This document shows, piece after piece, positions 10,501 through 52,796 of a stretch of DNA of 64,000 bases. The position numbers and the translations under genes are program-made. The stretch covers positions 129,952,001-130,016,000 of the forward strand of contig OZ024741.1 of the NCBI GenBank assembly GCA_964016885.1, in the 5' to 3' direction. Position 1 is the first letter of the stretch; each line of letters opens with the position of its first letter. The notes under the pieces are model-generated. The model had not been told where the DNA came from, did no database searches, and saw only the letters and a program-made list of their open reading frames with translations. The DNA is from Eledone cirrhosa. Taxonomy: Eukaryota.

Positions 10501-13500
10501 CCACAACCACCTCCAAAATCAGCACCAACCCCCACCAACAGCACCACTACAACACCTCCAACAACAACACAAACCCCACCAACACTACCACCACTACCTC
10601 CCCCATTAACAACAACACGACCAACACCACAACCACCTCCAACAACAACACCAACCCCCACCAACACCACCACTACAACCACCTCCAACAACAGCACCAA
10701 CCCCACCAACACTACCACCACTACCCTCCCCCATTAACAACAACACGACCAACACCACAGCCACCTCCAAAATCAGCACCAACCCCCACCAACACCACCA
10801 CTACAACCACCTCCAACAACAGCACCAACCCCACCAACACTACCACCACTACCCTCCACCATTTACAACAACACGACCAACACCACAGCCACCTCCAAAA
10901 TCAGCACCAACCCCCACCAACACCACCACTACAACCACCTCCAACAACAGCACCAACCCCACCAACACTACCACCACTACCCTCCACCATTTACAACAAC
11001 ACGACCAACACCACAGCCACCTCCAAAATCAGCACCAACCCCCACCAACACCACCACTACAACCACCTCCAACAACAGCACCAACCCCACCAACACTACC
11101 ACCACTACCCTCCACCATTTACAACAACACGACCAACACCACAGCCACCTCCAAAATCAGCACCAACCCCCACCAACACCACCACTACAACACCTCCAAC
11201 AACAACACCAACCCCCACCAACACCACCACTACAACCACCTCCAACAACAGCACCAACCCCACCAACACTACCACCACTACCCTCCACCATTTACAACAA
11301 CACGACCAACACCACAACCACCTCCAAAATCAACACCAACCCCCACCAACACCACCACTACAACCACCTCCAACAACAACACCAACCCCACCAACACTAC
11401 CACCACTACCCTCCACCATTTACAACAACACGACCAACACCACAGCCACCTCCAAAATCAGCACCAACCCCCACCAACACCACCACTACAACCACCTCCA
11501 ACAACAACACCAACCCCACCAACACTACCACCACTACCCTCCACCATTTACAACAACACGACCAACACCACCACTACAACCACCTCCAACAACAGCACCA
11601 ACCCCACCAACACTACCACCACTACCCTCCCCCATTAACAACAACACGACCAACACCACAGCCACCTCCAAAATCAGCACCAACCCCCACCAACACCACC
11701 ACTACAACCACCTCCAACAACAGCACCAACCCCACCAACACTACCACCACTACCCTCCCCCATTAACAACAACACGACCAACACCACAACCACCTCCAAA
11801 ATCAACACCAACCCCCACCAACACCACCACTACAACCACCTCCAACAACAGCACCAACCCCACCAACACTACCACCACTACCCTCCCCCATTAACAACAA
11901 CACGACCAACACCACAACCACTTCCCAAATCACCACCAACCCCCACCAACACCACCACTACAACCACCTCCAACAACAGCACCAACCCCACCAACACTAC
12001 CACCACTACCCTCCCCCATTAACAACAACACGACCAACACCACAGCCACCTCCAAAATCAGCACCAACCCCCACCAACACCACCACTACAACCACCTCCA
12101 ACAACAGCACCAACCCCACCAACACTACCACCACTACCCTCCACCATTTACAACAACACGACCAACACCACAGCCACCTCCAAAATCAACACCAACCCCC
12201 ACCAACACCACCACTACAACCACCTCCAACAACAACAACACCAACCCCACCAACACTACCACCACTCCTCTCCCCCATTAACAACAACACGACCAACACC
12301 ACAGCCACCTCCAAAATCAGCACCAACCCCCACCAACACCACCACTACAACCACCTCCAACAACAGCACCAACCCCACCAACACTACCACCACTACCCTC
12401 CCCCATTAACAACAACACGACCAACACCACAGCCACCTCCAAAATCAGCACCAACCCCCACCAACACCACCACTACAACCACCTCCAACAACAACAACAC
12501 CAACCCCACCAACACTACCACCACTACCCTACCCCATTAACAACAACACGACCAACACCACAGCCACCTCCAAAATCAACACCAACCCCCACCAACACCA
12601 CCACTACAACCACCTCCAACAACAACAACACCAACCCCACCAACACTACCACCACTACCCTCCCCCATTAACAACAACACGACCAACACCACAGCCACCT
12701 CCAAAATCAGCACCAACCCCCACCAACACCACCACTACAACCACCTCCAACAACAACAACACCAACCCCACCAACACTACCACCACTACCCTCCCCCATT
12801 AACAACAACACGACCAACACCACAGCCACCTCCAAAATCAGCACCAACCCCCACCAACACCACCACTACAACCACCTCCAACAACCCCACCAACACCAAC
12901 CCCACCAACACTACCACCACTCCTCTCCCCCATTAACAACAACACAACCAACACCACAGCCACCTCCAAAATCAAGACCAACCCCCACCAACACCACCAC
13001 TACAACCACCTCCAACAACAACACCAACCCCACCAACACTACCACCACTACTCTCCCCCATTAACAACAACACGACCAACACCACAGCCACCTCCAAAAT
13101 CAGCACCAACCCCCACCAACACCACCACTACAACCACCTCCAACAACAACAACAACCCCACCAACACTACCACCACTCCTCTCCCCCATTAACAACAACA
13201 CAACCAACACCACAGCCACCTCCAAAATCAAGACCAACCCCCACCAACACCACCACTACAACACCTCCAACAACAACACCAACCCCACCAACACTACCAC
13301 CACTCCTCTCCCCCATTAACAACAACACGACCAACACCACAGCCACCTCCAAAATCAGCACCAACCCCCACCAACACCACCACTACAACCACCTCCAACA
13401 ACAACACCAACCCCACCAACACTACCACCACTACTCTCCCCCATTAACAACAACACGACCAACACCACAGCCACCTCCAAAATCAAGACCAACCCCCACC

Positions 13501-16500
13501 AACACCACCACTACAACCACCTCCAACAACAACACCAACCCCACCAACACTACCACCACTACTCTCCCCCATTAACAACAATAAGACCAACACCACAACC
13601 ACCTCCAAAATCAGCACCAACCCCCACCAACACCACCACTACAACCACCTCCAACAACAACACCAACCCCACCAACACTACCACCACTACTCTCCCCCAT
13701 TAACAACAACACGACCAACACCACAGCCACCTCCAAAATCAAGACCAACCCCCACCAACACCACCACTACAACCACCTCCAACAACAACACCAACCCCAC
13801 CAACACTACCACCACTACCCTCCCCCATTAACAACAACACGACCAACACCACAACCACCTCCAAAATCAGCACCAACCCCCACCAACACCACCAATACAA
13901 CCACCTCCAACAACACCAACCCCACCAACACTACCACCACTACGCTCCCCCATTAACAACAACACGACCAACACCACAACCACCTCCAAAATCAGCACCA
14001 ACCCCCACCAACACCACCACTACAACCACCTCCAACAACAACACCACCCCACCAACACTACCACCACTACCCTCCCCCATTAACAACAACACGACCAACA
14101 CCACAACCACCTCCAAAATCACCACCAACCCCCACCAACACCACCAATACAACCACCTCCAACAACACCAACCCCACCAACACTACCACCACTACCCTCC
14201 CCCATTAACAACAACACGACCAACACCACAGCCACCTCCAAAATCACCACCAACCCCCACCAACACCACCACTACAACACCTCCAACAACAACACCAACC
14301 CCCACCAACACCACCACTACAACCACCTCCAACAACAGCACCAACCCCACCAACACTACCACCACTACCCTCCACCATTTACAACAACACGACCAACACC
14401 ACAACCACTTCCCAAATCACCACCAACCCCCACCAACACCACCACTACAACCACCTCCAACAACAGCACCAACCCCACCAACACTACCACCACTACCCTC
14501 CCCCATTAACAACAACACGACCAACACCACAGCCACCTCCAAAATCAGCACCAACCCCCACCAACACCACCACTACAACCACCTCCAACAACAGCACCAA
14601 CCCCACCAACACTACCACCACTACCCTCCCCCATTAACAACAACACGACCAACACCACAGCCACCTCCAAAATCAGCACCAACCCCGACCAACACCACCA
14701 CTACAACCACCTCCAACAACAGCACCAACCCCACCAACACTACCACCACTACCCTCCACCATTTACAACAACACGACCAACACCACAGCCACCTCCAAAA
14801 TCAAGACCAACCCCCACCAACACCACCACTACAACCACCTCCAACAACAGCACCAACCCCACCAACACTACCACCACTACCCTCCACCATTTACAACAAC
14901 ACGACCAACACCACAGCCACCTCCAAAATCAGCACCAACCCCCACCAACACCACCACTACAACCACCTCCAACAACAGCACCAACCCCACCAACACTACC
15001 ACCACTACCCTCCCCCATTAACAACAACACGACCAACACCACAGCCACCTCCAAAATCAGCACCAACCCCGACCAACACCACCACTACAACCACCTCCAA
15101 CAACAGCACCAACCCCACCAACACTACCACCACTACCCTCCACCATTTACAACAACACGACCAACACCACAGCCACCTCCAAAATCAAGACCAACCCCCA
15201 CCAACACCACCACTACAACCACCTCCAACAACAACAACACCAACCCCACCAACACTACCACCACTCCTCTCCCCCATTAACAACAACACAACCAACACCA
15301 CAGCCACCTCCAAAATCAAGACCAACCCCCACCAACACCACCACTACAACCACCTCCAACAACAACAACACCAACCCCACCAACACTACCACCACTCCTC
15401 TCCCCCATTAACAACAACACAACCAACACCACAGCCACCTCCAAAATCAAGACCAACCCCCACCAACACCACCACTACAACCACCTCCAACAACAACACC
15501 AACCCCACCAACACTACCACCACTACCCTCCCCCATTAACAACAACACGACCAACACCACAACCACCTCCAAAATCAGCACCAACCCCCACCAACACCAC
15601 CAATACAACCACCTCCAACAACACCAACCCCACCAACACTACCACCACTACGCTCCCCCATTAACAACAACACGACCAACACCACAACCACCTCCAAAAT
15701 CAGCACCAACCCCCACCAACACCACCACTACAACCACCTCCAACAACAACACCACCCCACCAACACTACCACCACTACCCTCCCCCATTAACAACAACAC
15801 GACCAACACCACAACCACCTCCAAAATCACCACCAACCCCCACTAACACCACCAATACAACCACCTCCAACAACACCAACCCCACCAACACTACCACCAC
15901 TACCCTCCCCCATTAACAACAACACGACCAACACCACAGCCACCTCCAAAATCACCACCAACCCCCACCAACACCACCACTACAACACCTCCAACAACAA
16001 CACCAACCCCCACCAACACCACCACTACAACCAACTCCAACAACAACACAAACCCCACCAACACTACCACCACTACCCTCCCCCATTAACAACAACACGA
16101 CCAACACCACAACCACCTCCAAAATCACCACCAGCCACCATCAACACCACCACTACAACCACCTCCAACAACAACACCAACCCCACCAACACTACCACCA
16201 CTACCCTCCCCCATTAACAACAACACGACCAACACCACAACCACCTCCAAAATCAGCACCAACCCCCACCAACACCACCACTACAACCACCTCCAACAAC
16301 AACACCAACCCCACCAACACTACCACCACTACCCTCCCCCATTAACAACAACACGACCAACACCACAACCACCTCCAAAATCAACACCAACCCCCATCAA
16401 CACCACCATTACAACCACCTCCAACAACAACACCACCCCACCAACACTACCACCACTACCCTCCCCCATTTACAACAACACGACCAACACCTCTGCCACC
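4540..16500. repeat. Tandem satellite, 127-128 bp unit, C/A-rich top strand, with higher-order duplications
   Basis: The landmark CCCCCATTAACAACAACACGACC recurs with its TAA at 4668, 4795 and 4923 (period 127, 128). Identical ORF translations are offset by 3159 bp (6683/9842, 6898/10057). Confidence 0.97.
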
Positions 16501-16633
16501 ACCAAAAATAAAATAGCACCCCCAACAACATCACAACACCACCCTTAACATTTCCACCACCAACACTATAATCACCAACACCTCCACCACCACTATTCCC
16601 ATTTTCTCCACCACCACCGAAAACAACACCACA

Positions 16634-17539: not shown

Positions 17540-17755
17540 GAATGCCATGGTTGACGGAGGCTCGGCTCTGTAAGGTATAGTAATTTTTAACCGTTAAAAC
17601 AATTGTAAATTGTTTAAAACTTGAACCAAATTGTTGATAAAGACACCCTCCTCCTCGTGAGAGGGGTCTTTCTGTCCGTTATTTGGCCCTTCGGGGTTAA
17701 ATAACCAGTTATTGGGGTTTTGTACCCAAAATTTCATTTTAAACAAAAAAACAAC

Positions 17756-19810
17756 ATGGCTACGAAAAAGAAATTTCATACGTCACTCCCACTCATTCCG
17801 TTTTCTTCTTCCTCAATCATCACTACAGCAGAGAGAAGATTGTCTCTCTCCCTCCCTTCTTTAAATGTGTCTCTCTCCCTCCCTTCTCTTTCGCAAGTGA
17901 CGAAAGAAAAGAAAAGTCTCGTGCAAAGCGTGCAAGGTTTCTCCACGACAACGACGACAGCGACGAAACAGGTGTGCGGGAAATACGAAAACCCAGTTCA
18001 TTCGTCTGACGTCAGGAATAATAGCAGTAGCAGCCGTAATAACAACAGCAACAGTGACAATGAAAACAACAGTAGCAGCCGCAACAGCATCACCAGCAGC
18101 ATAAACAACAACAGCATTAGCAGCAGCAACACCAACAACAACCACAGCAACAACAAAAGTACCAGCAGCTCTGACGACAACAACAACAGCAGAGAAAAAC
18201 CAATCTCATTTGCAGGTATTGCGAAAAACTTGGAAACAATCCTCATACAAATGAGGAATTAGAGGAAGCGAAGAAGATGGTGACAAAGAACGGACACCGA
18301 GCAATCTGCAAGGCAGCGGAAAAATTTTTCGAAACCCAAGAGCACTGTACGGTCACGTACCGTACAATAAGTACAAAATCCCGTAGGGTGGAAAGAGCCA
18401 CAGAGGCCCAAATACAAAAAGCCTTGGGGTCTGTGTGGCAGCGGAAAACGCACATCACCCGAGGCAAAAAATATGCCACCGTAGACGTACTTTTTGCCAC
18501 ACCCCAGGAGGAAAAGGCCCAATCAGTAGTGACCCTAAGGAGCGAGGAAATGGTGTTGGTGCCCTCCTACTGCGGGCAAAAAATTGTGAAGGTCAAACTG
18601 ACCCACGCCCCCCCCCCCGGAATGACCCCTTCTTGGCTGGCCGCGTCTGTCCTCGTCGGAATCGTACAGTTGTTTTGTCCTCGAGAAAAAAGTAAGAGAA
18701 GATTGGGTCGGCTCCTCCATTGAGATGCTAATCCAAACCAACCAGGAGTGCATCGAAGCTATCCCGGATGTGATAGACTTCGATAACGGCACTCAACTGC
18801 CCATAAGTGTTGAGGGCAAACGCCCGAAATGCTTTCGCTGTGGATCGAAGACTCACCTCAGGGCCTTCTGCAACGAGAAGACCCTGAGAAAGGAGAAAAC
18901 CCCCCTCCTTCCGAATCCGGCTCCACGGCTACCAGCAACAGGACAAGCGGCAACCAGGAACGATAGGCCCGTGGCACCCATACCCACTCCACGGAAATCA
19001 AAAACAGCAGCAGCAGTGGAAATATTAACAACAACAACAGCAATACCAAATGCAGCTGCAACAGAGACTCCAGTGCAAACATCACCAACAACAACAAGTG
19101 AAAGAGTGGAGCTGGTACCCCTCCCCGATCTCACAGAATCAGACATGGAGTGTGAGGTGGGAGAGGGATGGCAAAAGGTCGTAAGAAGGCACAAACGCAG
19201 AAGCAGCGCATCGTCGCCTTTGAAAAGGGAGGAAAGAAATGAGAAAAGGGTAAAGTCTACTGCAAAGAGACCCACAGCAGCAACAACACCAACACCATCA
19301 CCACCCACACTAGCACCACCATCACCACCGGCGACAACCCCACCGCCAACAACGCCTTCAACACCACCACCACAGGCACCAACATCGCAAACACAACAAC
19401 AAAACACACACACCCAGCAACAACGACAAGAAAATAGCAGAACCACACCCCACCCCCAGAAAAACAAATGCACGGCAATAAATACACACAACAAGAAACT
19501 AATGACTTACATAATTGAACACACAGACATTTCACAACAGGACTACATAATACCAGCACCAATCAAAACGCCAACTAACATAAGACTGCTAAAAATAGCA
19601 CAGAAACAATACACAAACATTAAAACGAAATTCCCCAACGCAGTTGGTGATTTCAGGGACCTAGGAGGAACCATCAATCGAAGAGTATACTCAGACATTC
19701 TCTTAGAAGAGCCGACGACCAGCCGAAGGGACGATTCAACGGTCCCTTCACCAGACGATCAAGTGAAAAGGGATGTAAAAACCATCCCTCCTCTACCAAA
19801 AGTACGGTAA
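17756..19810 (+). pseudogene. Copy B ORF1 (gag-like, zinc knuckle), frameshifted
   Basis: Pieces 17720-18262, 18277-18723 and 18725-19810. CFRCGSKTHLRAFC knuckle, N/S-rich N-terminus, T/P-rich linker. Confidence 0.85.
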
Positions 19811-19845
19811 GTGGTCTTTCCCATCTTTTCCACTCTATTTTAAAC

Positions 19846-22800
19846 ATGACCTCACTCAGAATAGGCAGCATAAATGCGCGTGGCTTGGGGTCGTCATGGA
19901 AGCAGGGTCACCTGCTCAACGACCTCAGGTCACTAAACATAGATGTAGTGGCCATCAGCGAGACCAGAATCTCCGAAGCACGGGCCTTCGCACCGATCTT
20001 CGGCGGCTACGATGTGTACGCATCTCCCAGCCGTCCTGGATCGGGTGGAGGAGTTGCTGTGCTTTTTCGGAGAGGTTTGGATCTCGCCATACGGGCCATC
20101 TTCCTGGACCCAGAGGGTAAGCTGGTGGTGCTGGACGTGACCAGCGGAGACGGGCAAGCTTTCAGGCTAGTGGCCGTCTATGCCCCGACAGGAGCAGGGC
20201 GGCCTGATTTCTTCCGGCGTCTGGAGACCTTTCTTGGAACGTCCCGCTCTTTAGTGTTAGTGGGCGACTGGAACGGGATCTTAGATGCACGCTGGGACTG
20301 TGTGGGATTAGCAGATAGGGGTGGAGGGTGCAAGAGCCTCACCAACCTGCTCAGGCGTTTTGAACTGTCTGACAGGTACCGATTGGATTTCCCGAATGTG
20401 CCAATGTGGACTTGGACAAACCGCATAGGGTCATCCAGATCATATCTAGATAGAGTATTTTGTAGGGAAATAGATAGGTCTAGCATAGGCTGTCCACAAT
20501 TCAAGATAGTCAGCTACACGGACCACAAATTGGTGACCTGTGTGCTTGACTTAGATAGGCTTCATAGACGAGGACCCGGCTACTGGAAGCTAAACGCGTC
20601 CTTACCAGCGCGCAAGGCCTACAGAGACCGGATTAGCGAACTAGTTAAGCAGGCGTTGACGGGGGCCATCGTCAACAACAAGTGGTGGCTTATTCTGAAA
20701 GGAGCGATTAGAATAGAGTCCATTTGGTTTAGTAAGGCTTTAGCAATAGAGAAAATTAGAGCAGAGGGAGAACTAGTTAGAAAATTAGACGAGGCGCTTA
20801 GCAAAGGCATTGCGACCGACGTGCTTGCGGCGAAATTGGCCCTTGACCAATTCTTCAATGCAAAGCACGAAGGCTGCGTTGTCAGAGCTAGTGTGCGTGC
20901 TCTCAGACACGAGGGGACGAATGCCGTTCAATGGGCCCGAGTGGCGGAGGCGCGTCGTGGCAACAAAGCCACGATCCGGTCTTTGGTGGACCACGACGGG
21001 CGCATGCTACTCGATCCCGGACAAATGTGTGAAGCTTTTCAGCGACACTTCGCTCAGCTGTTCGGGGGCAGCGGGGGGCCGGGTAGAGGGATGGACTTTA
21101 GTGTCTACCTCGACGGACTGCCGCGGCTCTCGGCCACTGAGGCGAAGTGTTGCGAAAAGCCGATAACAGCCGCTGAAGTAAGGGAGGCAATGACTGGCTG
21201 CATAAGGGGTAAATCGCCTGGTTTGGATGGTCTGCCCTATGAACTTTACGTACAGATGCCAGACTTGTTCGGAGGCCTCTTGGTGGACGTCTACTGCAAC
21301 TGGCAACAGAACGGGAGAATTCCCAGTTCTGTGAGCCGAGGAGCGGTGGCACTGCTGAGAAAGGATCCGAACAAGGGGGATAACATAGACAATTTCCGGC
21401 CCATAACTCTGCTAAACACAGAGTTTAAGATTTTGGCCAAGGTGCTAGCAAAGAGGTTGGCGCTTGTCGTTGGTGGTCTGGTGGGAGAGGCGCAGACATG
21501 CGCCATTCCCGACAGATCCATCCACGACAACCTCCACCTCATGCGATACATCGTAGAGAGGGTAGCTAGGGAACCTGGCACGGGTGGGTCCTTGATCAAT
21601 TTAGATCAGTCGAAAGCTTTCGATAGGGTCGACCATCGTTACCTAGCGGCAGTCCTGAGGGCGGCTGGCTTTGGGCCCGTCTTCAGAGGCTGGATCGCTG
21701 CCATGCACAGCGACATCTGCTCTGTGGTGAGAGTGAACGGTCACCTGTCGGAACCGTTCAACATCATGCGCTCGGTCCGCCAAGGATGTCCCCTCTCGTC
21801 CCTCTTGTACGTATTGACTCTCGAGCCATTACTGCACAAACTGGAGACGTTGAGGGGAGTCCCGCGCGAACTAGGATGCGGAAGATCCGTGTCAGCATAT
21901 GCGGACGATGTCACCGTAGTGGTGTCGAACGCCAAACACATCGAGGCGATCGGCACTACACTAAGAGAATACGAAGCGGTGACAGGAGCAATGATCAACC
22001 AGTAAAAGTCAGTGGGCCTGCAGCTCGGCACCTGGAGAGGCAGGTCCATGCCGTCCAACAGTGTCGTCGGGCGCTGGACGGACGGACCGGTTAAATTGCT
22101 AGGGGTCTGGTTCGGTCCGGACCTCCAGACGGACAAAAACTGGGACGAGGTGACGAGCAGGGTGGCTTCTCTCACCCAGAAATTGCCGGAGAGGAAGCTA
22201 TCCCTGAAAGGTCGAGCGGAGGTGGCTAACGCGTACATCGCGTCTGTCATCTGCTACCGCCTAACCGTCGTACCTTGTCCTAAGCCTCGCCTGACTGCGC
22301 TGGAGCGTTTGCTCTTTCGCTTTTTGTGGAAGGGACGTGCTCCGATGGTCAGGCGGTCCATCTGTTGTCAACACCCGCTACGTGGAGGGCTGGGCATGCC
22401 GTGGCTGATGATGCGCAGGCACGCGCTCAGGCTACGACATCTCCACCTCTTCCTCGACGGTGATCAGGTGTGGTCGCCGTTTGCTAGACGCGTTTTTCCC
22501 CAGCTCGTTTCCTTGACGGAGCTGCAGTCCTGGGTCAAGCGAAGACCGAGAGGGAGCGCCTGGAGACTGGAATGTCTTCAGGCGCTCACAGCCCTCGACC
22601 AATCGGGCAATGTGATCGGTGGAAACTCCACCTCGGCGTTCTATAGAGGATTAGTGGAGGGGAAGAGCGACGACGTACTTGGGGAAACTCTAGGCGTCGA
22701 CGAAAATCAACTAGCCAATCTCTTCGGAAGAACTTTCGGGCCAGGGCCTATGGACAACTTCCAGAAATCTCTGGCCTGGCAGTGCTACCGAGGAGCCTTG

Positions 22801-23265
22801 CCAGTTCAGGATAAACTCTACAGGCATGGAGGTGCCGTCAGCCGGGCATGTCCGAGATGCGCGCAGGGCGACGAAACCGTCCTGCACGCACTCGTCCAGT
22901 GTCCGAAAATTGCTGACTTGTGGGTTTATGTCGAACACCTGCTGTCGCGTTTAGGACGGATCCAGCTATCATCTGAGTCCATCGTGAGGATTGCCCCGCC
23001 CTCCTCCTTTAGCCGGGAAGGGCAGGCAGTTTTTATCTGTCTGGTGGCCATGGCGAAAGAGATAGTATGGTGGACACGTTTGAAAGGGCTGAAGACGAGC
23101 ACTTACCTCTTCGGTGATGCTCTGATTGACTTTTTCAAATTTCATTTGAAAAGGAAAATCAGAGTAGAGAGGGAAGTGCTCTCTTCCCAGCATTTTGTTG
23201 AAAGATGGGTGAGAGAAGCAAGAATGGCCCGAGTGAATGGGCCGACTCTGAGTATATATCTGTAA
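19846..23265 (+). pseudogene. Copy B ORF2 (AP endonuclease, reverse transcriptase, CCHC), one premature stop at 22003
   Basis: SINARGL, GDWN, YLDR, TDH (APE). KAFDRV, RQGCPLS, AYADD (RT). CPRC..ETVLHALVQC. TAA here where copy D has GAA. Confidence 0.95.
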
Positions 23266-23513
23266 ACTAAAGGTGGAAAACTGGGAGAGGGCACTTGCCT
23301 TGGTGGTCAGGGTCATTGTGGCTTTTTACTGGGCTTTCTCCACAAATGTCCCTCCGAAGTCTCCCCCCTATTGGGGAATTTTTCATTGTTATTTTTTGTT
23401 ACATCCTCTGTTTTTGTTTTTTACACGCAGAAATGCCCATTTGTACCGTCCTGCATTGTCCTGCACTGTCCTTAATGTCTACTTTATGTAAACCCTTGTG
23501 GTTAATAAAGAAA

Positions 23514-23545
<32 letters not shown>

Positions 23546-23755
23546 GACGAAAGTGGATTACGTTTTTTGAAGCTCCGTGAGTAAGCAATTTTTTGAGGAT
23601 TAATTGTGGAGAATTGTTTATTTTTTTGTACCGCTGAAGCATTATAAGACATTCATTTGTATCCTGTGAAGGAATAACTCATAATATTTGGGCCTTTTGG
23701 CCCAAATATTTGAACTTTATTTTGGAAAAATAATAATTTTTTTTCTCAAAAAAAC

Positions 23756-25658
23756 ATGGCGGAGCCACGCCCCCTAGAGGCGGGTCTGCTGTCGTGCAAC
23801 GGCGACTTGAGCGTTGAGAGGAGAGGTGGGGCGAGGAGCGCCACCAGCACGAGTGTGAGCAGCGACAGTGCCAGCACCAACGGGCCGAGCGGCGCGGAAG
23901 GTGGTAACAGCGACAACACCAACACCAACAAGCCGAACAGCGCAGAAGGTGGTAATAGCGAGAGCACCAACAAAACGAACAGCACAGAGAGTAATAGTAG
24001 CGACAGCAGCAGCACCAACAAGGCCAACAGCACAGAGGGTAACCACGACACAGGGGAGAACAACAACAGCAATAGCAGCAGCAACACCAACAAGAACAAC
24101 AACAGTGACAACAAGAACACCTTCGCTGCTGTGGCAGCGGCTAAAAGGAGACCATGCTACAGCATCGACTTAACCAACAGAGAGGAAAAGTTGGCCCAGG
24201 CCTGGAAAATCATAAATCAAGAGCAGACCTAGGCAAACTTAACTGTCCCGGCAGAAGCCATTGAGGCAGTGGAAAAAAGAACGGTGCATTTCAGATGCAT
24301 CTCAGTAGAGACAAAGAGGGCAGCGATAATCGCCCAAGCTGATATAGAAGCCGCACTGAAATACATCAGAGAGGACACAGACTTCATAGAGAGGGGCAGG
24401 CAATACGGCACCGTTTCGGTGCTGTTCAAGTCTGAAGCCCTCGCTGTGAAGCATTCAATGACCCCTTGCAAAACCAGCAAGGTCATAATGTACCCCTCCC
24501 ACATGGGAAAACGAATAGCACGTGTGCGCATTCCCAGGATTCCACCAGGACTTGATATGTGGTGGCTCCTGGGTTGCGTAATCGTGGAAGGAACGGATAC
24601 AGTCCCGGTAGAGGCAACGAGAACTGCCAGGGACGACTGGTCCGGGGTTGATCTGGAGATACTGCTCCAAATCAGACCCGAAAACGTAAAAGCAATCCCG
24701 GACCACATCCGCCTCCAAAACGGGAGGGTGTTGCATATAATGACTGAGGGCAAAAGGCCGCATTGTTTCCTTTGTGGGGAAACGACACACTTGCGAGCCT
24801 TCTGCCCTCAACTGCCGAAAAGCGCAAGGGGTCGAAAGATTCCACTGCTGGCGACGCCGGGACAAGGACCACCAGCAACACCGTCAACAATGGAACCACC
24901 AAAATTGCACACCCAGGGGGGAAACGAGGAAAGCTCTCCCATTCCCCCTCCCCCCCAAAATACACACACGAACAAGAACATAAACACTCACTCAGACACA
25001 AACACGCTCACAGCCACAGACCCCTCATCCTCCAGCAGTGAAGATGAGGGAAAACCAAAGTCCCCCAAAATACAAAAAACAAAACACAAAAAAAAAGAAA
25101 TCCACAAAGCACAAACACCCCCACAAAAAAAATACACACACCACCCACACAAACATTTTCCCCACAGCATCACCAACACAACCACCAAAATCCCCCAAAC
25201 GCAAACAAGCTAAACAGACACAAGAACAAATAGACACACAAACATCAGAAACTACAGACACCCCACCCACAACAAACGCAGACACAATAGAAACAACACT
25301 AACAAAGCTATCACCACCACAATCACACGAACAAATAAAACCCGAGCAACAAAACATTAAAAACTTCGTGCTTGCCAGAAGGGCCAACAAGGAATTGATG
25401 GCCCATGTAGCACGAAGCACAAACATCGAAAAAGAGGGGGAAACATTTGAAGCGAGCACATTTCGCGTACCAGATAATTTGCTTCTGATGCGAATGTCGC
25501 TCGCTTCATACAAAGAAATTCGAAAGAGCTTTCCTCGGGATGTGGGAACCCCGAACGTAAAACCCACTTCAAGACTATTAAAGGGGTTCCCAAAAGAAAC
25601 CCCACAAACCATGGAGGTCGAACCACCCGACCTTCACAAGACCCCGGAAGGTAAGTAA
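23756..25658 (+). pseudogene. Copy C ORF1, in-frame stop at 24230 and a frameshift near 25100-25200
   Basis: CFLCGETTHLRAFC knuckle. The C-terminal block NKELM..FPRDVG aligns with B (NKKLM..FPNAVG). Confidence 0.85.
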
Positions 25659-25687
25659 ACCTTTCCTCTCCCATTCATCCTGCCAGC

Positions 25688-28600
25688 ATGGCCATAAGAG
25701 TAGGAAGTTTAAATGTTCGTGGCCTGGGGTCGCCCTGGAAGCAAGGTCACTTGCTCAACGACCTCAGGTCACTAGGAATGGATGTAATTGCCATCAGCGA
25801 GACCAGAATTTCCGACACACGCGCACTGGCGCCGATTTTCTACGATTATCAGATCTTTGCATCTGTTAGTCGGCCGGGAATGGGAGGTGGAGTGGCTGTG
25901 CTGTTTAGGAAATGTCTGGATCTCGAGGTAAGGTCAATCTTCCGGGATCCTGACGGAAAGTTGGTGGTCCTGGACGTGAGCAATAGCGAAGGTGGTGCCT
26001 TTAGACTGGTGGCCGTCTACGCCCCTACTGGGGCCGGTCGGCCGGACTTCTTTAGGCGCCTGGAAAACTTTCTGCTTACGTCTCGCCCTTTACTGTTAAT
26101 AGGGGATTGGAATGGCATCCTAGAAGCACGCTGGGATTGTGTGGGAGTATCTGATAGGAGCGGGGGGTGCAAAAGCCTCAAGTACCTGATCAGCCAGTTT
26201 CAACTGTCTCACAGGTACCGACTAGATTTCCCTAATGCGCCAGTATGGACCTGGACCAATCGCATAGGGTCATCTAGATCGTACATAGATAGGATTTTCA
26301 TTAGGAAAAGAGCTAGAAATAGTGTAGGATGTCCACATTTTAAAACGGTTGCCTATTCAGATCACAAGCTTGTGATCTGTATGGTCGACCTAGATAAGAC
26401 ACGTAGGTTAGGACCTAGCTACTGGAAGCTAAACATGTCGTTTCCGGCACGTAAAGCTTACAGGGACCGGGTCAACAACTTAGTTAAGCAAAAGTTGACA
26501 GGGGGGGGTTGTCAACAACAGGTGGTGGGGGGCTCTCAAAAGAGAGATTAGAGCAACCTCGATAGGATTTAGCAAAGAAGTAGCAATAGAGAAAAATAGA
26601 AAGGAGGAGGGGCTGATAGCTAAGTTAGACGAGGCTATTTGTAGTGGCATTGCAACAGACGTGCTAGCGGCGAGAATGGCACTAGACCATTTCTTCAATG
26701 CGAAACACGAAGGTTGCATTGTCAGAGCTAAGGCGCGTGCTCTGAGGAACGAGGGAACCAAAGCTGCCCGATGGGCTCTCTTTGCAGAGACGCAGCGTGG
26801 AAATAAAACCACAATTCGGTCTTTGACGGATCGAGATGGACACGAACTGAACGATTCCAAGCAGATGTGTGAGGCCTTTCGCCAGCACTTTGCTCGATTG
26901 TTCGGGATGATGGGTGAGTCGGAGACGGCGGCGGACTTCAGTCCCTACCTCGACGGCTTGCCACGCCTCTCGACGGCCGACGCTGAGCGCTGCGAAGAGC
27001 CGATAACATCAGTCGAAATTCAGGACGCCCTTGTCGGCTGCTCGAGTCGCAAGTCACCCGGTTTGGATGGTCTGCCCTACGAGCTTTACGTAAATATGCC
27101 AGACTTGTTCTCCGATCTCCTCGAAGCGCTCTACTGCAACTGGCAGCAGAACGGGAGCATTCCCAGTTCTGTGAGCCGTGGCGTAGTGACGCTGATAAGG
27201 AAAGACGAGAACAAGAGGGACACACTAGATAATTTCAGGCCCATAACCCTGCTCAACACAGAGTTTAAGATTTTGGCCAAAGCATTCGATAGGGTCGACC
27301 ATCGGTACTTGGAGGCTGTCCTCGAGGCGGCTGGCTTCGGCCCCGTCTTCAGAAGCTGGATCGCTGCAATGTACAGCGGCATCTGCTCGGTGGTCAAAGT
27401 TAATGGCCACCCCTAGGAAACGTTTCAGATCTCTCGATCGGTCCGTCAAGGGTGCCCTCTCTCCTCACTTCTGTACGTATTGACTCTTGAGCCTCTACTG
27501 CGGAAGCTGGAGTTGTTGCAGGGCATCCCGCTCGAACCGGGACGTAGAAAGGCTGCGTCCGCTTATGCGGACGACATCACCGTGATGGTGTCGGACACCT
27601 CGGAAATCGAGGTGATCCGCACCCATTTGGAGGAATATGAAAGGTTGACGGGAGCAAAACTTAACCCGGAAAAGTCGGTGGGCTTGCAGCTCGGCACCTG
27701 GAGAGGCAAGTCCATGCCGTCCAACAGCGTCGTTGGGCGCTGGACAGACGGACCGGTAAAGTTGCTCGGGGTTTGGTTCGGACCAGACCTCCAGGTGGAT
27801 AAGAATTGGGACGAGGTGACGAGCAGGATAGCCAACCTCACCCAGAAATGGGCTGAGAGAAAGCTATCACTGAAAGGGCGGGCGGAGGTGGCGAACGCGT
27901 ACATCGCGTCCGTCATCTACTACCGCCTGACCGTCGTGCCTTGCCCCCGTCCACGCCTCGCCAATTTGGAACGGCTCCTTTTCAAATTTTTGTGGAGGGG
28001 ACGGGTCCCGTTGGTGAGGCGGTCCATCTGCTGCCAGCACCCTCTTCGTGGAGGGCTGGGCATGCCGTGGCTAATGATGCGCAGACATGCGCTGAGGCTG
28101 CGACATCTCCAGATATTTTGCCTAAACGGTGAACAGGTGTGGTCGCCGTTTGTTAGCCTTTCCGCAGCTCATCTCTTTGACTGAGCTGCAGTCCTAGGTC
28201 AAGAAGAGACCGAGACTGGGCGACTGGCATCTGGAATGTTGCCAGGCGCTCACTGCACTCTGCAAGGTGGGCAATGCGGTCAGTGGAACTTCCACTCAAG
28301 ATTTCTATAGAGGATTAGTGGAGGGCAAGTACGATGACGTACTAGGAGAGGCTCTAGGCGTCAACGAAGTAGAACTGACCAGTATGTTCCGGAGGACTTT
28401 CGAGCCGGGGACGATGGATAACTTCCAGAAATCCCTCGCTTGGCAGTGCTACCGGGGGGCGCTGCCGGTTCGGGATAAACTCTACAGGCACGGAAGTGCT
28501 GTCAGACGAACCTGCCCGAGATGCGCGCAGAGCGACGAAACCGTTCTGCACGCACTCGTCCAGTGTCCGTGCATTGCTGACTTGTGGGGTTATGTCGAAC

Positions 28601-28929
28601 AGCTATTGTCGCGTGTAGAACGGATCCGGCTATCGTCCGAGTCCATAGTGAAGATTGACCCGCCGCCTTCTTTTGGTCAGGAAGGGCAGGCAATTTTCCT
28701 CTGCCTGGTGGCAGTAGCGAAAGAGGTTGCATGGTGGACCAGGTTGAACGGACTGAAGACAGACACTTTTCTCTTCGGCCAATCCCTCATCAACTTCTTC
28801 AAGTTTCACTTGGAAAGGAAGGTGAGGGTGGAGAGAGAAGTGCTGCCCCCCAGTACATTTACTGAAAGGTGGGTGAATGTGGCGAGAATGACCCGCGTGA
28901 GTGGGCCTATTCTGATCATGCGCCTGTAG
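25688..28929 (+). pseudogene. Copy C ORF2, fragmented, with an RT-internal deletion
   Basis: ORFs 25688-26551, 26661-27416, 27480-28184 and 28267-28929 are collinear with B ORF2. Confidence 0.93.
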
Positions 28930-29199
28930 GCTGGTGAATTCGAGAAGGAGAGGGGTGCCCTTCCCGGGTGCCCTAGGAGCGTCGGGTGGCTCAGGACTGG
29001 TGGGGTGCTTGAGTCAACCCTGGGTGGTGATCCCTCTTATTGGGGAACTTTCATTGTTGTATTTTTATTGTTATTTTGTTTTTTGTTATTTATACTTACT
29101 CGATCTCTATGTAAACCCCCACTGTCCCTGTCTATTGTGTTGTCCCCTATATGTCGGCCCTTGTGGCCAATAAATGAAATCATTATTATTATTATTATT

Positions 29200-47150: not shown

Positions 47151-47384
47151 GTTATTATTATTATTATTATTATTATTGGCGACCTACGTAGGAAATCGTA
47201 TCATCGTGAGCTCCGCAAAGGTTTGTTATTTCCGTTTGTTAAAAATTGCCATTTATGGAAAATTTTATTGTTAACTGTTTATAAGCACACATACATTGTT
47301 TTCCGAAAAGGACACCCAAAAAGATTGGGGCCTTGTGCCCAAAATTTTAACTTTTATTATTATCCAAAAATTTCTTTGAAAAAA

Positions 47385-49066
47385 ATGGCTAATTCCCCTC
47401 TGCACGAAGCAGCTGAAAGCCTTGCTCACAAAATAACACCTCACACCGACACCACCATTGTAAATGTTACTACGTTTGCCAACACAAAAAAAAATATAAG
47501 CAGTAGCAATATTTTAAATTTGTCTCAGGCAGACATTCATTTCCCGCCATTACCAATGACTGCAGGTGTTAAAGCCTCCACCACCACCACCACCGCGACA
47601 ACCACCACCCTCACCACCACCGCGACAACAGAAACAAAAGAAGAAAAAAATAAATTAACTCGTGATGTCGAAATGAAATCAAGCAAAATGGACTCTTCCG
47701 CACCAAAGACGACTGACGTCACCACCACCACAACTGAAACTAAAATTAAGATTAACATAAATAACGATAGCAACAACAACAACAATGACATTATAAAACC
47801 GACCCTCAGTTTCGCCATCGTAGCAAAACAATTCGAAGCGTTCACACTCGTCCCAAGCTATTGTGGCCAGAGACTCGTAAAGATCAGGGTGACCCACGTT
47901 CCACCGGCCATCGAAATTCCCTGGCTAATAGCGGCTGTCCTCGCCGGCATCGAAGCCAACACGAAAATAATAGCAATAGCAAAAGAAAAGCAGGAAAACT
48001 GGTCCGGATCTGGGATGGAGCTCCTGATCCAAGCGGACCAAAAAAGCATTGAGGAGATCCCAGAGGTAATAGACCTCACTGACGGCAGCCACCTCACGGT
48101 AATTGTCGAGGGCAGAAGACCTAGGTGTGTCGTTTGTGGTGAAGGAACCCACCTAAGGGCTTTCTGCCCTCAGGCTAAAAGGTTGAGGCCACCTCTCCTA
48201 CCCACCCCAGTGACACAACCATCAACACCACCAGTAGCAGAGATGGCAGCAACAACTGTAGCAGCAACAACAGAAGCAACTATAACAGCAACAACCCCAG
48301 CAACAGTAGCAAAACCAACACCACTACCACCACCAGCAAAACGAACACCACCACCACCCAACGCTTCAGAACTAGCACCAGCGCCTACACCATCCAACGC
48401 ACCACAACCAAAACTAACGCCTGTGGAGGATTTTCCACTCCCCGGCCTATCACAACTGGAGACAGATTGTGACGACGAGGAGTGGGAAACGATATCCGGA
48501 AAAAAAAAAGAAACCAAAAAAGAAAAAATTCTCTTCCTTCCCCCTCCAAAAACAAAATACAGAGGGAAACAAATAAACTAAGAAACAAAAAAGTTAGGAC
48601 AGATATGCCACCACCCACACCAGCATCACCAACCCCATCAACCCAAACACCAACACCATCACCATCATTAACTCCAACACCACCATCACCTACACCACAA
48701 AAGTCACCAAAAAGCGAAACAGAAACAAACCCACAACAAACGCAAACAAAACAAAACAACCAAAACGATACACACTACACAGCATTAAATTTGAACAACA
48801 AGCAATTATTACACTACATCCAACACAACACCAGCATCACAGAAAAAGACTACACAACAACCCCAAAATTCACACCACCTCCACACATACAAATCACTCG
48901 CATCACACAGAAAACGTACATGACACTTAAACAAAAATTCCCCAAAGACATCGGAGATTTCCGACAAACACTCTCCAGGAGGATTTATAAGGACATCCTT
49001 CCTGAGGAGGCCACAAGCAGTGAAAAGGATGGAAAAAACGTCCTTCCCCTACGAGAAGTAAGGTAA
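47385..49066 (+). pseudogene. Copy D ORF1, internal deletion and frameshift
   Basis: CVVCGEGTHLRAFC knuckle. LVPSYCGQ motif shared with B. Confidence 0.85.
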
Positions 49067-49100
49067 GTGGTCTTTCCCATCTTTTCCACTCCTTTTCAAC

Positions 49101-52100
49101 ATGACCTCACTCAGAATAGGCAGCATAAATGCGCGTGGCTTGGGGTCGTCATGGAAGCAGGGCCACCTGCTCAACGACGCAGGTCACTAAACATAGATGT
49201 AGTGGCCATCAGCGAGACCAGAATCTCCGAAGCACAGGATTTCGCACCGATCTTCGGCGGCTACGATGTGTACGCATCTCAAAGCCGTCCGGGATCGGGG
49301 GGAGGAGTTGCTGTGCTTTTTCGGAGAGGTTTGTATCTTGCCATACGGGCCATCTTCCTGGACCCAGAAGGTAAGTTGGTGGTGCTGGACGTGACCAGCG
49401 GAGACGGGCAAGCTTTCAGGTTAGTGGCCGTCTATGCCCCGACAGGAGCAGGGCGGCCTGATTTCTTCCGGCGTCTGGAGACCTTTCTTGGAACGTCCCG
49501 CTCTTTAGTGTTAGTGGGCGACTGGAACGGGATCTTAGATGCACGCTGGGATTGTGTGGGATTAGTGGATAGGGAAGGAGGGTGAAAGAGTCTCACCAAT
49601 CTGCTCAGACGTTTTGAACTGTCTGACAGGTACCGAATGGATTTCCCGAATGTACCAATGTGGACTTGGACAAATCGCATAGGGTCATCCAGATCATATC
49701 TAGATAGAGTATTTTGTAGGGAAATAGATAGGTCTAGCATAGGCTGTCCACAATTCAAGATAGTCAGCTACACGGACCACAAATTCGTGATCTGTGTGCT
49801 TGACTTAGATAGGCTTCATAGAGGAGGACCCGGCTACTGGAAGCTAAACGCGTCCTTACCAGCGCGCAAGGCCTACAGAGACCGGATTAGCTAACTAGTT
49901 AAGCTGGCGTTGACGGGGGCCATCGTCAACAACAAGTGGTGGTTTGCTCTGAAAAGAGCAATTAGAATAGAGTCCATTAGGTTTAGTAAGACTTTAGCAA
50001 TAGAGAAAAATAGAGCAGAGGGAGAATTAGAAAATTAGATGAGGCGCTTAGCAAAGGCATCGCGACCGACGTACTTGCGGCGAAATTGGCCCTTGACCAA
50101 TTCTTCAATGCAAAGCACGAAGGCTGCGTTGTCAGAGCTAGGGTGCGTGCTCTCAGACACGAGGGGACGAAAGCCGTTCAATGGGCCCGAGTGGCGGAGG
50201 CGCGTCGTGGCAACAAAGCCACGATCCGGTCTTTGGTGGACCACGACGGGCGCATGCTACTCGATCCCGGGCAAATGTGTGAAGCTTTTCAGCGACACTT
50301 CGCTCAACTGTTCGGGGGCAGTGGCGGGCCGGATCGAGGGATGGACTTTAGTGTCTACCTCGACGGACTGCCGCGGCTTTCGGCCACTGAGGCGGAGTGT
50401 TGCGAAAAGCCGATAACAACCGCTGAAGTACGGGATGCAATGACTAGTTGCACAAGGGGTAAATCGCCTGGTTTGGATGGTCTGCCCTATGAACTTTACG
50501 TACAAATGCCAAACTTGTTCGGAGGCCTCTTGGCGGACGTCTACTGCAACTGGCAACAGAACGGGAGAATTCCCAGCTCTGTGAGCCGAGGAGCGGTGGC
50601 GCTGCTGAGAAAGGATCCGAACAAGGGGGATAACATAGATAATTTTAGGCCCATAACTCTGCTAAATACAGAGTTCAAGATTTTGGCCAAGGTGCTAGCA
50701 AAGAGGTTGGCGCTTGTCGTTGGTGGTCTGGTGGGAGAGGCACAGACATGCGCCATTCCCGACAGATCTATCCACGAGAACCTCCACCTCATGCGATACA
50801 TCGTAGAGAGGGTAGCTAGGGAACCTGGCAAGGGTGGGTCTTTGATCAATTTAGATCAATCGAAAGCCTTCGATAGGGTCGACCTTCGTTACCTAGCGGC
50901 AGTCCTGAGGGCGGTTGGCTTTGGGCCCGTCTTCAGAGGCTGGATCGCTGCCATGCACAGCGACATCTGCTCTGTAGTGAGAGTGAACGGTCACCTTTCG
51001 GAACCGTTCAACATCATGCGCTCGGTCCGCCAAGGATGTCCCCTCTCGTCCCTATTGTACGTATTGACTCTCGAGCCATTACTGCACAAACTGGAGACGT
51101 TGAGGGGTGTCCCGCGCGAACTAGGATGCGGAAGATCCATGTCAGCATATGCGGACGATGTCACCGTAGTGGTGTCGAACGCCAAACACATCGAGGCGAT
51201 CGGCACTACACTAAGAGAATACGAAGCGGTGACAGGAGCAATGATCAACCAGGAAAAGTCAGTGGGCCTGCAGCTCGGCACCTGGAGAGGCAGGTCCATG
51301 CCGTCCAAGAGCGTCGTCGGGCGCTGGACGGACGGACCGGTTAAATTGCTAGGGGTCTGGTTCGGTCCAGACCTCCAGACGGACAAAAACTGGGACGAGG
51401 TGACGAGCAGGGTGGCTTCTCTCACCCAGAAATGGGCCGAGAGGAAGCTATCCCTGAAAGGTCGAGCGGAGGTGGCGAATGCGTACATCGCATCCGTCAT
51501 CTACTACCGCCTGACCGTCGTACCTTGTCCTAAGCCCCGCCTGACTGCGCTGGAGCGTTTGCTCTTTCGCTTCTTGTGGAAGGGACGCGCTCCGATGGTC
51601 AGGCGGTCCATCTGCTGTCAACACCCGCTACGTGGAGGGCTGGGCATGCCGTGGCTGATGATGCGCAGACACGCGCTCAGGCTACGACATCTCCACCTCT
51701 TCCTCGACGGTGATCAGGTGTGGTCGCCGTTTGCTAGACACGTTTTTCCCCAGCTCGTCTCCTTGACGGAACTGCAGTCCTGGGTCAAGCGAAGACCGAG
51801 AGGGAGCGCTTGGAGGCTGGAATGTCTTCAGGCGCTCACAGCCCTCGACCAATCGGGCAATGTGATCGGTGGAAACTCCACCTTGGCGTTCTATAAGGGA
51901 TTAGTGGAGGGGAAGAGCGACGACGTACTTGGAGAAACTCTAGGCGTCGATGAAAATCAACTAGCCAATCTCTTCGGAAGGACTTTCTGGCCGGGGCCTA
52001 TGGACAACTTCCAGAAATCCCTGGCCTGGCAGTGCTACCGAGGAGCTTTGCCAGTTCGGGATAAACTCTACAGGCATGGAGGTGCCGTCAGCCGGGCATG

Positions 52101-52515
52101 TCCGAGATGCGAACAGGGCGACGAAACCGTCCTGCACGCACTCGTCCAGTGTCCGAGCATTACTGACTTGTGGGTTTATGTCGAACACCTGCTGTCACGT
52201 GTAGGACGGATCCAGCTATCAGCTGAGTCCATCGTGAGGATTGCCCCGCCCCCTTCCTTTAGCCGGGAAGGGCAGGCAGTTTTTATCTGTCTGGTGGCCA
52301 TGGCGAAAGAGATAGTATGGTGGACACGTTTGAAAGGGCTGAAGACGAGCACTTACCTCTTCGGTGATGCCCTGATTAACTTTTTCAAATTTCATTTGAA
52401 AAGGAAAATCAGGGTAGAGAGGGAAGTGCTCTCTTCCCAGCATTTTGTTGAAAGATGGGTGAGAGAAGCAAGTATGGCCCGAATGAATGGGCCTTCTCTG
52501 AGTATGTGTCTGTAA
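49101..52515 (+). pseudogene. Copy D ORF2 (APE-RT-CCHC), stops and frameshifts in the first third
   Basis: Near-identical to B ORF2 by eye. Confidence 0.95.
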
Positions 52516-52759
52516 ATTAAAGGTGGAAAACTGGGAGAGGGCACTTGCCCTGGTGGTCAGGGCCACTGTGGTCTTTTAATGGGCTTTCTCCACAAATGTC
52601 CCTCGGAAGTCTCCCCCCTATTGGGGAATTTTTTCTTTGTTATTTTATTTCAACCTCCGTTTTTTTTACACGCAGAAATGCCCATTTGTACCGTCCTGTA
52701 TTGTCCTTTACTGTCCTTAATGTCTACTTTATGTAAACCCTTGTGGTTAATAAAGAAAA

Positions 52760-52796
<37 letters not shown>

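Follow-up and report, generated by a model that had tools for sequence, protein, structure and literature searches.

What is a consensus 5' splice donor doing at the end of ORF1 in a LINE? The question is raised by three copies (B, C, and D) in a window of Eledone cirrhosa DNA, the whole 64,000-nt stretch analyzed here, all of them inserted in (ATT)n repeats:

17541..23515, + strand: copy B, a full-length L1/Tx1-group LINE bounded by (ATT)n, its own ORF1 and ORF2 each broken
18830..18871, + strand: zinc knuckle (C-X2-C-X4-H-X4-C) of copy B ORF1, from the translation of ORF 18725-19810
23546..29181, + strand: copy C, in tandem right after B with (ATT)n between them
47178..52760, + strand: copy D, bounded by (ATT)n repeats

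The window copies are damaged: ORF1 and ORF2 of B are split, and ORF2 of D shifts frame near codon 28. From position 19762 through the 3' end, B matches D at 95% identity, and we therefore treat the pair as a single observation and not as two. All 40 of the 40 scored genomic matches to copy B were 100% identical over 401 nt. The ORF1 translations of B, C, and D all contain the C-X2-C-X4-H-X4-C pattern; a Pfam search of ORF1 returned zero family matches, zinc knuckle included. ORF2 matched PF03372, PF00078, and PF13966 (an AP-like endonuclease, RT, and a C-terminal zinc domain), and its nearest solved sequences were those of the human L1 endonuclease (E 4e-06). Inspected tails elsewhere in the genome end in (ATT)n-like repeats, those of subfamily F (L145 and L155) in (ATCT)n-like ones. 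The Tx1 label given by the first-pass annotation fits this anatomy, since target preference, CCHC ORF1, and ORF2 domains are all consistent with it. A genome search for a more distant Tx1-like family with the start of protein P0018 returned the same lineage only (36-41%), and three Pfam-matched loci (L073, L076, and L085) were set aside as another LINE type without the motif.

In each copy, the GTAAGT reported earlier was found again on re-reading the sequence (the slash marks the putative exon end):

19805..19812, + strand: copy B motif CG/GTAAGT, phase 2; GT at 19807, ORF1 stop TAA at 19808-19810
25649..25656, + strand: copy C motif AG/GTAAGT, phase 1; GT at 25651, ORF1 stop TAA at 25656-25658
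49061..49114, + strand: copy D motif AG/GTAAGT with spacer and acceptor, phase 2; GT at 49063, stop at 49064-49066

The motif had been described as overlapping the ORF1 TAA in all three copies, which is right for B and D and wrong for C, whose ORF1 reads G/GT AAG TAA. As this ORF1 stops past GTAAGT, the C donor is in phase 1 and those of B and D are in phase 2. The C frame is supported by six C-family copies that are open for >550 codons (L035, L051, L052, L054, L056, and L058; 30 loci). The motif exceeds chance expectation: the sense strands of B and C each have a single GTAAGT, and that of D has two.

Conservation of the donor proved more general than had been noted, extending beyond B, C, and D to ten subfamily representatives whose ORF2 identity falls to 54-60%; these representatives are non-independent, having one common ancestor, and E2 is a single 5'-truncated copy. 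We drew 120 junction contexts, blind to the donor, from 118 of 130 loci, and 108 of the 120 ORF1 junctions end in AG/GTAAGT or a one-base variant (73 exact and 35 with one mismatch, 16 of the latter being the CG variant of B). Natural variants of the motif include GTGAGT copies and subfamily G, in which CAG/GTAATT has lost +5 and makes a weaker site. Over the ten representatives, positions -2..+6 agree in 9-10/10, whereas agreement is 4-7/10 at -15..-4 and 5-6/10 at +7..+9; a weaker second block of pyrimidines at +10..+16 is conserved in 6-9/10. For comparison, 10 of 43 fourfold-degenerate ORF2 sites are invariant over seven representatives. The donor lies in phase 2 in B, D, G, and F and in phase 1 in E, E2, E3, C, C2, and C3, and at least two phase switches are forced along the subfamily tree. 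Consensus bases are kept at wobble or untranslated positions in both settings (+1, +5, and +6 in B/D and F; -2, +2, and +5 in the E and C groups). A stop codon alone is therefore insufficient to account for the motif, which occurs in two phases with two changes forced on the starred branches.

The first-pass annotation had proposed that this donor removes a 52-53-nt intron that fuses ORF1 to ORF2. The features that bear on this proposal lie just downstream:

19811..19845, + strand: copy B inter-ORF spacer, 35 nt, pyrimidine-rich, no AG past the motif
19846..19848, + strand: copy B ORF2 start codon, A at -3
19857..19859, + strand: copy B proposed acceptor CAG, 53-nt intron, in frame; no genomic copy is spliced here
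25659..25703, + strand: copy C spacer and acceptors, with CAG at 25684-25686, ORF2 ATG at 25688, and in-frame GAG 25700 and TAG 25703 in poor acceptor context

Copy D has a 34-nt spacer, an ORF2 ATG at 49101, and a CAG ending at 49114. The first AG of B and D was correctly read as CTCAG, ending at 19859 and 49114 and giving in-frame introns of 53 and 52 nt. For copy C, the out-of-frame CAG at 25686 (36 nt) and the in-frame TAG at 25703 (53 nt) were also correct; two further AGs that precede TAG had been missed, an out-of-frame AAG at 48 nt and an in-frame GAG at 50 nt. On a home-made acceptor score, the nearby CAG reaches 9.1 in B and 10.9 in D, against 8.9-14.3 for five host acceptors, and the in-frame AGs of C reach -2.1 and -2.5. 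B, D, and some F copies offer an in-frame acceptor; in C, C2, E, and G, the acceptor that scores highest close by does not keep the frame, and L095 and L112 lack the AG of F. No in-frame acceptor with a pyrimidine tract is common to all subfamilies. Taking the first YAG at >=45 nt, 7 of 10 representatives keep the frame, yet these amount to only about five lineages. In the phase-1 families, use of the in-frame acceptor would cut the conserved first ORF2 codons, while the B/D join would retain a plausible endonuclease start. A 52-53-nt intron also falls short of the host range: among about 50 introns, the shortest were 89, 90, and 93 nt, in a sample from one gene family (myosin, in which 19 of 20 loci gave 52 automated estimates and two introns were read by eye).

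If such an mRNA were made, it would be expected to leave intron-less copies, because L1 proteins act in cis on their own RNA and spliced L1 RNA gives rise to ~1.8% of full-length insertions, as stated in the portion of PMC5860796 drawn on here. Five genome-wide pattern searches over ~7,650 ORF2 starts gave 22 matches, none of them spliced: 21 were unspliced and one was a microhomology deletion. Zero intron-less copies were thus found among an estimated ~3,500 testable B/D copies (a bound of ~0.1%), and zero in C and E. In locus L127, the exon end abuts ORF2 at the equivalent of window position 20242, but the segment left out terminates in CG and ACG is common to its two ends, so this is a deletion; L225 likewise reflects a deletion at microhomology. 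At the protein level, no fused ORF1-ORF2 product appeared in searches among longer proteins or in one profile-free representative search, which is weak evidence, and the ORF1 C-terminus found no match among longer proteins. Protein P0138, in which ORF1-like sequence continues across a spacer-like segment into ORF2, is consistent with a read-through copy that has decayed and not with a splice.

Separately, contigs from sequencing runs of unrecorded kind, possibly DNA, were seen to cross these junctions unspliced (X5 and X7 bridge the B junction, and one X7 contig crosses that of C). In the same runs, of which X2 resembles deep DNA, the proposed junction is absent among the 15 joint rows listed of 1,209. 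The joint table of L037, which has C- and D-type junctions, is empty with X6, X1, X7, and X5, again runs that are possibly DNA, and X1 gave no aligned contig there.

The ORF2 start is itself well kept. Its ATG, the ATG context, and the first codons are conserved; each of the nine representatives scored has A at -3, and distant homologs again begin with M-x(2-3)-hydrophobic-basic-hydrophobic. Across subfamilies, the distance from donor to ATG varies from 37 to 52 nt and the frame relation varies with it, so the earlier argument against a fixed ribosomal frameshift stands and we rejected that mechanism. We also rejected an acceptor upstream of the ORF2 ATG that would yield an ORF2-only mRNA, as the spacer has an AG only in C, E3, C2, and G and none in B, D, E, and F.

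Taken together, we suggest, at close to even odds by our own estimate, that the donor, conserved at the nucleotide level, is a selected U1 docking site at which the RNA that is retrotransposed is seldom if ever spliced, with ORF2 translated from its own AUG, probably by termination-reinitiation. Reinitiation across a spacer is described for L1 in the cited part of PMC5972666. U1 docking is likelier than an ORF-fusing switch because no copy lacking the 52-53-nt intron was found. The conserved block at -2..+6 is the span that pairs with U1. Scored against the U1 5' end of the host itself, the donor motif forms the strongest duplex within ±1.4 kb in 8 of 9 representatives; for the weaker G site, 19 of 2,783 windows score equally well. 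U1 binding is a prediction from complementarity, and of the fallback in the first-pass annotation, a U1-binding site, the conservation and the complementarity hold and the functional part is predicted.

We envisage that U1 would bind the motif during transcription and that the splicing step would then stall, because the nearby acceptors are 26-59 nt away, under the shortest host introns seen. The most likely effect of bound U1 would be to keep this two-ORF RNA of 6 kb from being cleaved and polyadenylated early, or else to damp its export. The end of ORF1 would be the least harmful location for such a site, because an accidental splice would leave ORF1 nearly whole. Comparable action of U1 without splicing is described for HIV-1 and papillomavirus, and 5' splice-site motifs are linked to nuclear retention, in the sections of PMC5071671 and PMC6199362 that we cite. 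AWTAAA counts give no direct support to the polyadenylation-protection part: in the upstream 600 nt, they are 2, 3, and 2 in B, C, and D versus 1.2, 1.6, and 2.0 in shuffles, that is, not above shuffles, and there were none upstream in the E and F copies checked or in ORF2 of B and D.

Three features of copies B and D bear on a different use of the donor:

19760..19771, + strand: copy B chimeric junction, E-type ORF1 to 19763 (the E-type donor place) and D-type from 19764
49018..49020, + strand: CAG in D-type ORF1 preceding the sequence joined into B, in poor acceptor context
23408..23430, + strand: copy B 3' UTR acceptor-like pyrimidine tract and CAG, also in the D tail, with CAG at 52675, and in G tails, and not at the same place in E, C, and F

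The breakpoint of B falls exactly on the E-type donor, with the D-type side following a CAG; it is possibly a fossil long-range splice, the expected trace of read-through splicing across tandem copies, and same-strand tandem arrays are common (B-C in the window; L141, L142, and L156). A regulatory switch, in which a working donor joins distant acceptors to make ORF1-only RNA (or an occasional B/D fusion) and read-through tandem splicing gave rise to subfamily B, a young chimera that has been highly amplified, seems to us unlikely. Its core, a working donor with a far partner in the 3' UTR, deep in ORF2, or in the next tandem element, so that ORF2 is dropped and an ORF1-only mRNA results, we rate as unlikely. 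A donor at the stop would leave ORF1 nearly whole whatever the acceptor, the 3' UTR CAGs of B, D, and G are strong (scores 12-13), and ORF1-only RNA would seldom be retrotransposed because ORF2 is missing. Against this, no single acceptor is shared, the CAG of B, D, and G being missing from the tails of E, C, and F; in the B chimera, the CAG on the D side has a score of -0.7; and the B junction is also explained by template switching at a 2-nt AG overlap. Patterns joining B/D, E, and C-type exon ends to a distant AG, limited to next exons with a base other than G at +1 and a base other than T at +2, gave 9 + 6 + 4 matches, none spliced. If B did arise by splicing, such donors would be a route for LINE subfamilies to swap ORF1 modules.

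It is doubtful that the motif is kept for a reason other than U1, be it a site for a DNA factor, an internal promoter for an ORF2 transcript, or a ribosome-tethering RNA element. Human L1 offers a precedent, as its conserved donor is retained as part of a RUNX3 DNA site (PMC5860796, in the part cited). Here, the invariant block coincides with the U1-pairing span, which argues against such a reason. The second block, the pyrimidines at +10..+16, speaks for one and may resemble a TCT/TOP initiator or reflect complementarity to the 18S rRNA 3' end; the 18S match would, we assume, need +7..+9, and these are the least conserved positions. As for tethering, UGGGA, the calicivirus TURBS core in the cited part of PMC5972666, is confined, within 150 nt upstream, to three C-type copies among the nine representatives, where it lies between -103 and -110.

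An ancestral accident, that is, descent combined with protein constraint (ORF1 ending in Arg-stop or Gly-Lys-stop) and no function of the motif's own, is very unlikely. The single ancestor, the basic last residue of every ORF1, the synonymous -2 change of B, and the loss of +5 in G are compatible with it; the consensus at wobble and untranslated positions in both phases, ORF1 tails that are otherwise dissimilar, and the low invariance of fourfold sites argue against it. Lastly, a splice-made ORF1-ORF2 fusion is unlikely, and its first-pass form, a 52-59-nt intron spliced to give a single protein, is highly improbable, for all that B, D, and some F copies have a first AG in frame with an acceptor score (B/D) in the host range.

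Among known systems, the elements most resemble the Tx1 clade (Kibi, Koshi, Keno, and Tx1L), which, in the part of PMC4494074 cited, shares the two ORFs, the AP-like endonuclease, RT and C-terminal zinc domain, the ORF1 zinc knuckle, microsatellite insertion, a pyrimidine-rich spacer, and an ORF2 ATG of its own; the targets differ, being (ATT)n here and (ATCT)n-like for F. In the literature outside Repbase reports and subscription journals, we found no description of a conserved consensus donor at the ORF1 end of Tx1 elements, nor of U1 snRNP use by a LINE. Copia/Ty1-type elements produce a subgenomic gag mRNA by splicing out pol, and here, too, an mRNA with the first ORF alone could result from a donor placed close to that ORF's end; those, however, are LTR elements with one fixed acceptor, whereas the present subfamilies have no common acceptor. 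A closer likeness to the U1 docking reading is found in splice-free U1 sites, where a consensus 5' splice site lies in RNA needed unspliced: the HIV-1 major splice donor, acting over the 5' LTR poly(A) site, and papillomavirus late 3' UTR elements use U1 without splicing (cited sections of PMC5071671 and PMC6199362). Those cases are viral or cellular and experimentally shown, whereas ours is known from sequence conservation and has no nearby conserved poly(A) signal. Since a LINE needs its RNA unspliced to copy itself, the persistence of a perfect donor in thousands of copies, despite changes of frame, points to U1 snRNP use by such an element. Being short, confined to a single defined position, and represented by natural variants (G and the GTGAGT copies), the motif lends itself to a direct test of function. 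In human L1, the donor lies in the 5' UTR within the RUNX3 site and ~1.8% of insertions are spliced (PMC5860796, in the part cited), whereas the donor of this lineage is located at the ORF1 stop and our searches turned up no precisely spliced copy; as with the 5' UTR donor and SpIREs of human L1 (PMC5860796) and the SpORF2 transcript (PMC2896524), so far as the cited parts describe them, a functional-looking donor has long been kept while most retrotransposed RNA is unspliced.

Copies B, C, and D, all on the forward strand, are L1/Tx1-group LINEs that encode endonuclease, RT, and zf-RVT domains and an ORF1 zinc knuckle. These elements are young and abundant; in the 3.0 Gb host genome, all 40 scored matches to the B junction were 100% identical over 401 nt, all 40 scored for C were near 100%, and an ORF2-start pattern gave 7,650 exact matches vs 1 in the control. 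Among close homologs of the ORF2 start, the only one with a name comes from an Octopus sinensis record (64% over one fifth of the query), which makes the host likely to be octopod-like. A stretch near the N-terminus of an O. sinensis tectonic-3-like model (P0004) resembles the LINE's endonuclease start, which would reflect exonization of a fragment or faulty annotation. (ATT)n repeats flank all three copies, and same-strand tandem arrays, mixed-subfamily ones included, are joined by (ATT)n (window 23516-23545; loci L141, L142, and L156). The 3' ends carry (ATT)n in B, C, D, and the further subfamily representatives E and G vs (ATCT)n-like repeats in F and a neighboring relative (L145, L155), a putative target switch inside one lineage. 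The window also holds a CAC-rich tandem array of about 12 kb (128-bp unit, 4556-16507) and other retroelement fragments (30010-30582, with a weak RT match at 30010; 42203-42709; 46349-46867), among which endonuclease-like or RT-tail-like ORFs were seen by eye.

Each copy bears an AG|GTAAGT-like donor at the end of ORF1, and the coordinates and frames given by the first-pass annotation hold for B, C, and D (GT at 19807, 25651, and 49063, respectively). Its C stop codon was misassigned: ORF1 of C reads past the TAA within GTAAGT and terminates two codons on (25656-25658), as confirmed by six open C-family copies among 30. Its acceptor AGs were incomplete (C has two more, at 48 and 50 nt), and B and D, counted separately, are 95% identical from 19762 onward and make one case.

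The predicted donor is general across the family, more widely than first annotated. We picked 130 loci blind to the donor (by Pfam endonuclease, ORF2-start pattern, or distant protein), and 118 of them yielded 120 junction contexts. Exact AGGTAAGT was present in 73 contexts and a one-mismatch donor in 35, 16 of these being B's CG variant. Two or more mismatches occurred in 12, none of which is a precise intron loss; in four the motif is present and was merely missed by the anchoring (L063, L104, L105, and L230), and the other eight are deletions or truncations. In two D-type loci (L118, L122), the variant GTGAGT still supplies a stop and still fits the 5' splice consensus. Among ten representatives under our own labels (B, D, E, E2, E3, G, C, C2, C3, and F), agreement was 9-10/10 at -2..+6, 4-7/10 at -15..-4, and 5-6/10 at +7..+9; a second, weaker conserved pyrimidine block lies at +10..+16 in all. 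Among seven representatives, ORF2 identity falls as low as 54-60%, with 10 of 43 fourfold sites invariant. The donor falls in phase 2 in B, D, G, and F and in phase 1 throughout the E and C groups, and on a tree built from 15 ORF2 5' ends the starred branches force the phase to change twice. Because all representatives descend from one ancestor and E2 consists of a single decayed copy, this conservation is good but not overwhelming evidence of selection.

Host U1 genes gave 42 matches, from which the 5' end was read; the genes are arrayed in tandem and recur about every 2.67 kb (G000:C2:180973544-180995099, G000:C1128). The donor is the best U1 pairing site among about 2,780 windows in eight of nine representatives. 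The exception is G, with CAG|GTAATT in three distinct copies (L153, L254, and L258), followed by a CTAAC branch-point-like motif in one, a long pyrimidine tract, and TAG at 47-50 nt; this spacer is the most intron-like of all, yet out of frame in L153.

The 52-53-nt intron proposed to fuse ORF1 to ORF2 fails on four counts. First, no spliced retrocopies were found. L1 proteins favor their own RNA, and passages of PMC5860796 put spliced L1 RNA at about 1.8% of full-length insertions. Genome-wide, junction probes covering acceptors 0-5 nt ahead of their anchor gave three B/D/E matches, all unspliced point mutants, and none for C/C2. Exon ends followed by non-donor sequence, a pattern blind to next exons that have G at +1 or T at +2, gave nine (B/D), six (E), and four (C group) matches, none spliced; apart from one deletion at an ACG microhomology, they reflect point changes or small deletions. 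By our count, B/D-type sequences make up about 70 of the first 100 ORF2 starts listed, and the exon-end pattern is exact in 23 of 35 sampled B/D copies; therefore, roughly 3,500 copies could be tested, which puts the spliced share below about 0.1%. Second, local AGs were ranked by a home-made acceptor score (8.9-14.3 for five host acceptors). The top-ranked one keeps the frame in B (9.1), D (10.9), and one F copy (9.1; another F copy lacks it) but breaks it in E (54 nt), G (47 nt), and C (36 nt, with in-frame AGs below -2), and in C2 it lies too close (26-28 nt). The first YAG at at least 45 nt, which favors fusion, is in frame in 7/10 representatives, about three of five lineages. Third, ORF2 has its own ATG with A at -3 in 9/9 representatives and first codons that keep the same pattern in distant homologs; a phase-1 fusion would delete them. 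Fourth, host introns have a minimum of 89-93 nt (52 automated estimates from 19 loci, plus two by eye), in a sample of 20 myosin-gene stretches that represents one gene family and includes a few possible double counts. Fusion by splicing is unlikely, and such an intron is very improbable.

B itself is a chimera, with its breakpoint as follows:

Window 19760-19771 (+); L156:2902-2964; window 49018-49030 (+): E/D chimera breakpoint of subfamily B

B ORF1 stays E-type through 19763, precisely the exon end where E-type copies bear the donor, and then passes into D-type sequence that in D copies comes after CAG. A 43-nt module at the end of ORF1 is present twice as a result of the join, which rules out in-register recombination. 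The join is what one would expect if read-through RNA were spliced from an E-type copy to a D-type copy lying downstream, and tandem arrays of this kind do occur. The D-side acceptor, however, has a score of -0.7 and an intact 5' parent was not found; we regard this origin as doubtful, and a template switch at a shared AG fits too.

We suggest that the donor may serve as a docking site for U1, the fallback of the first-pass annotation, and be spliced only seldom. This reading is plausible from donor conservation, predicted U1 complementarity, and the lack of spliced copies, and in our estimate falls just short of probable. U1 would bind at the donor and thereby affect element RNA. Nothing local supports a poly(A)-protection step: hexamers upstream did not exceed shuffles, and the E and F copies that were checked lack them. 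Long-range splicing would instead use the donor to give ORF1-only RNA, comparable to the Gag mRNA of Copia elements; we consider this route unlikely, with B, D, and G the only subfamilies to have a strong acceptor in the 3' UTR. That the donor is conserved as a DNA or ribosome element unrelated to U1 is quite unlikely; under that reading the pyrimidine block after the donor would resemble a TCT/TOP initiator or a match to the 18S rRNA 3' end. Retention by descent with protein constraint is improbable.

The literature searched yielded no description of a donor placed on the ORF1 stop in Tx1-type LINEs; a Repbase entry might mention one. The literature consulted also included PMC10294476, PMC4494074, and PMC2896524. 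For a U1 docking site, passages of PMC5071671 and PMC6199362 offer precedents of U1 action without splicing, including an HIV-1 case among the reference titles there. For ORF2 translation, passages of PMC5972666 describe reinitiation across a spacer in L1 and SART1.
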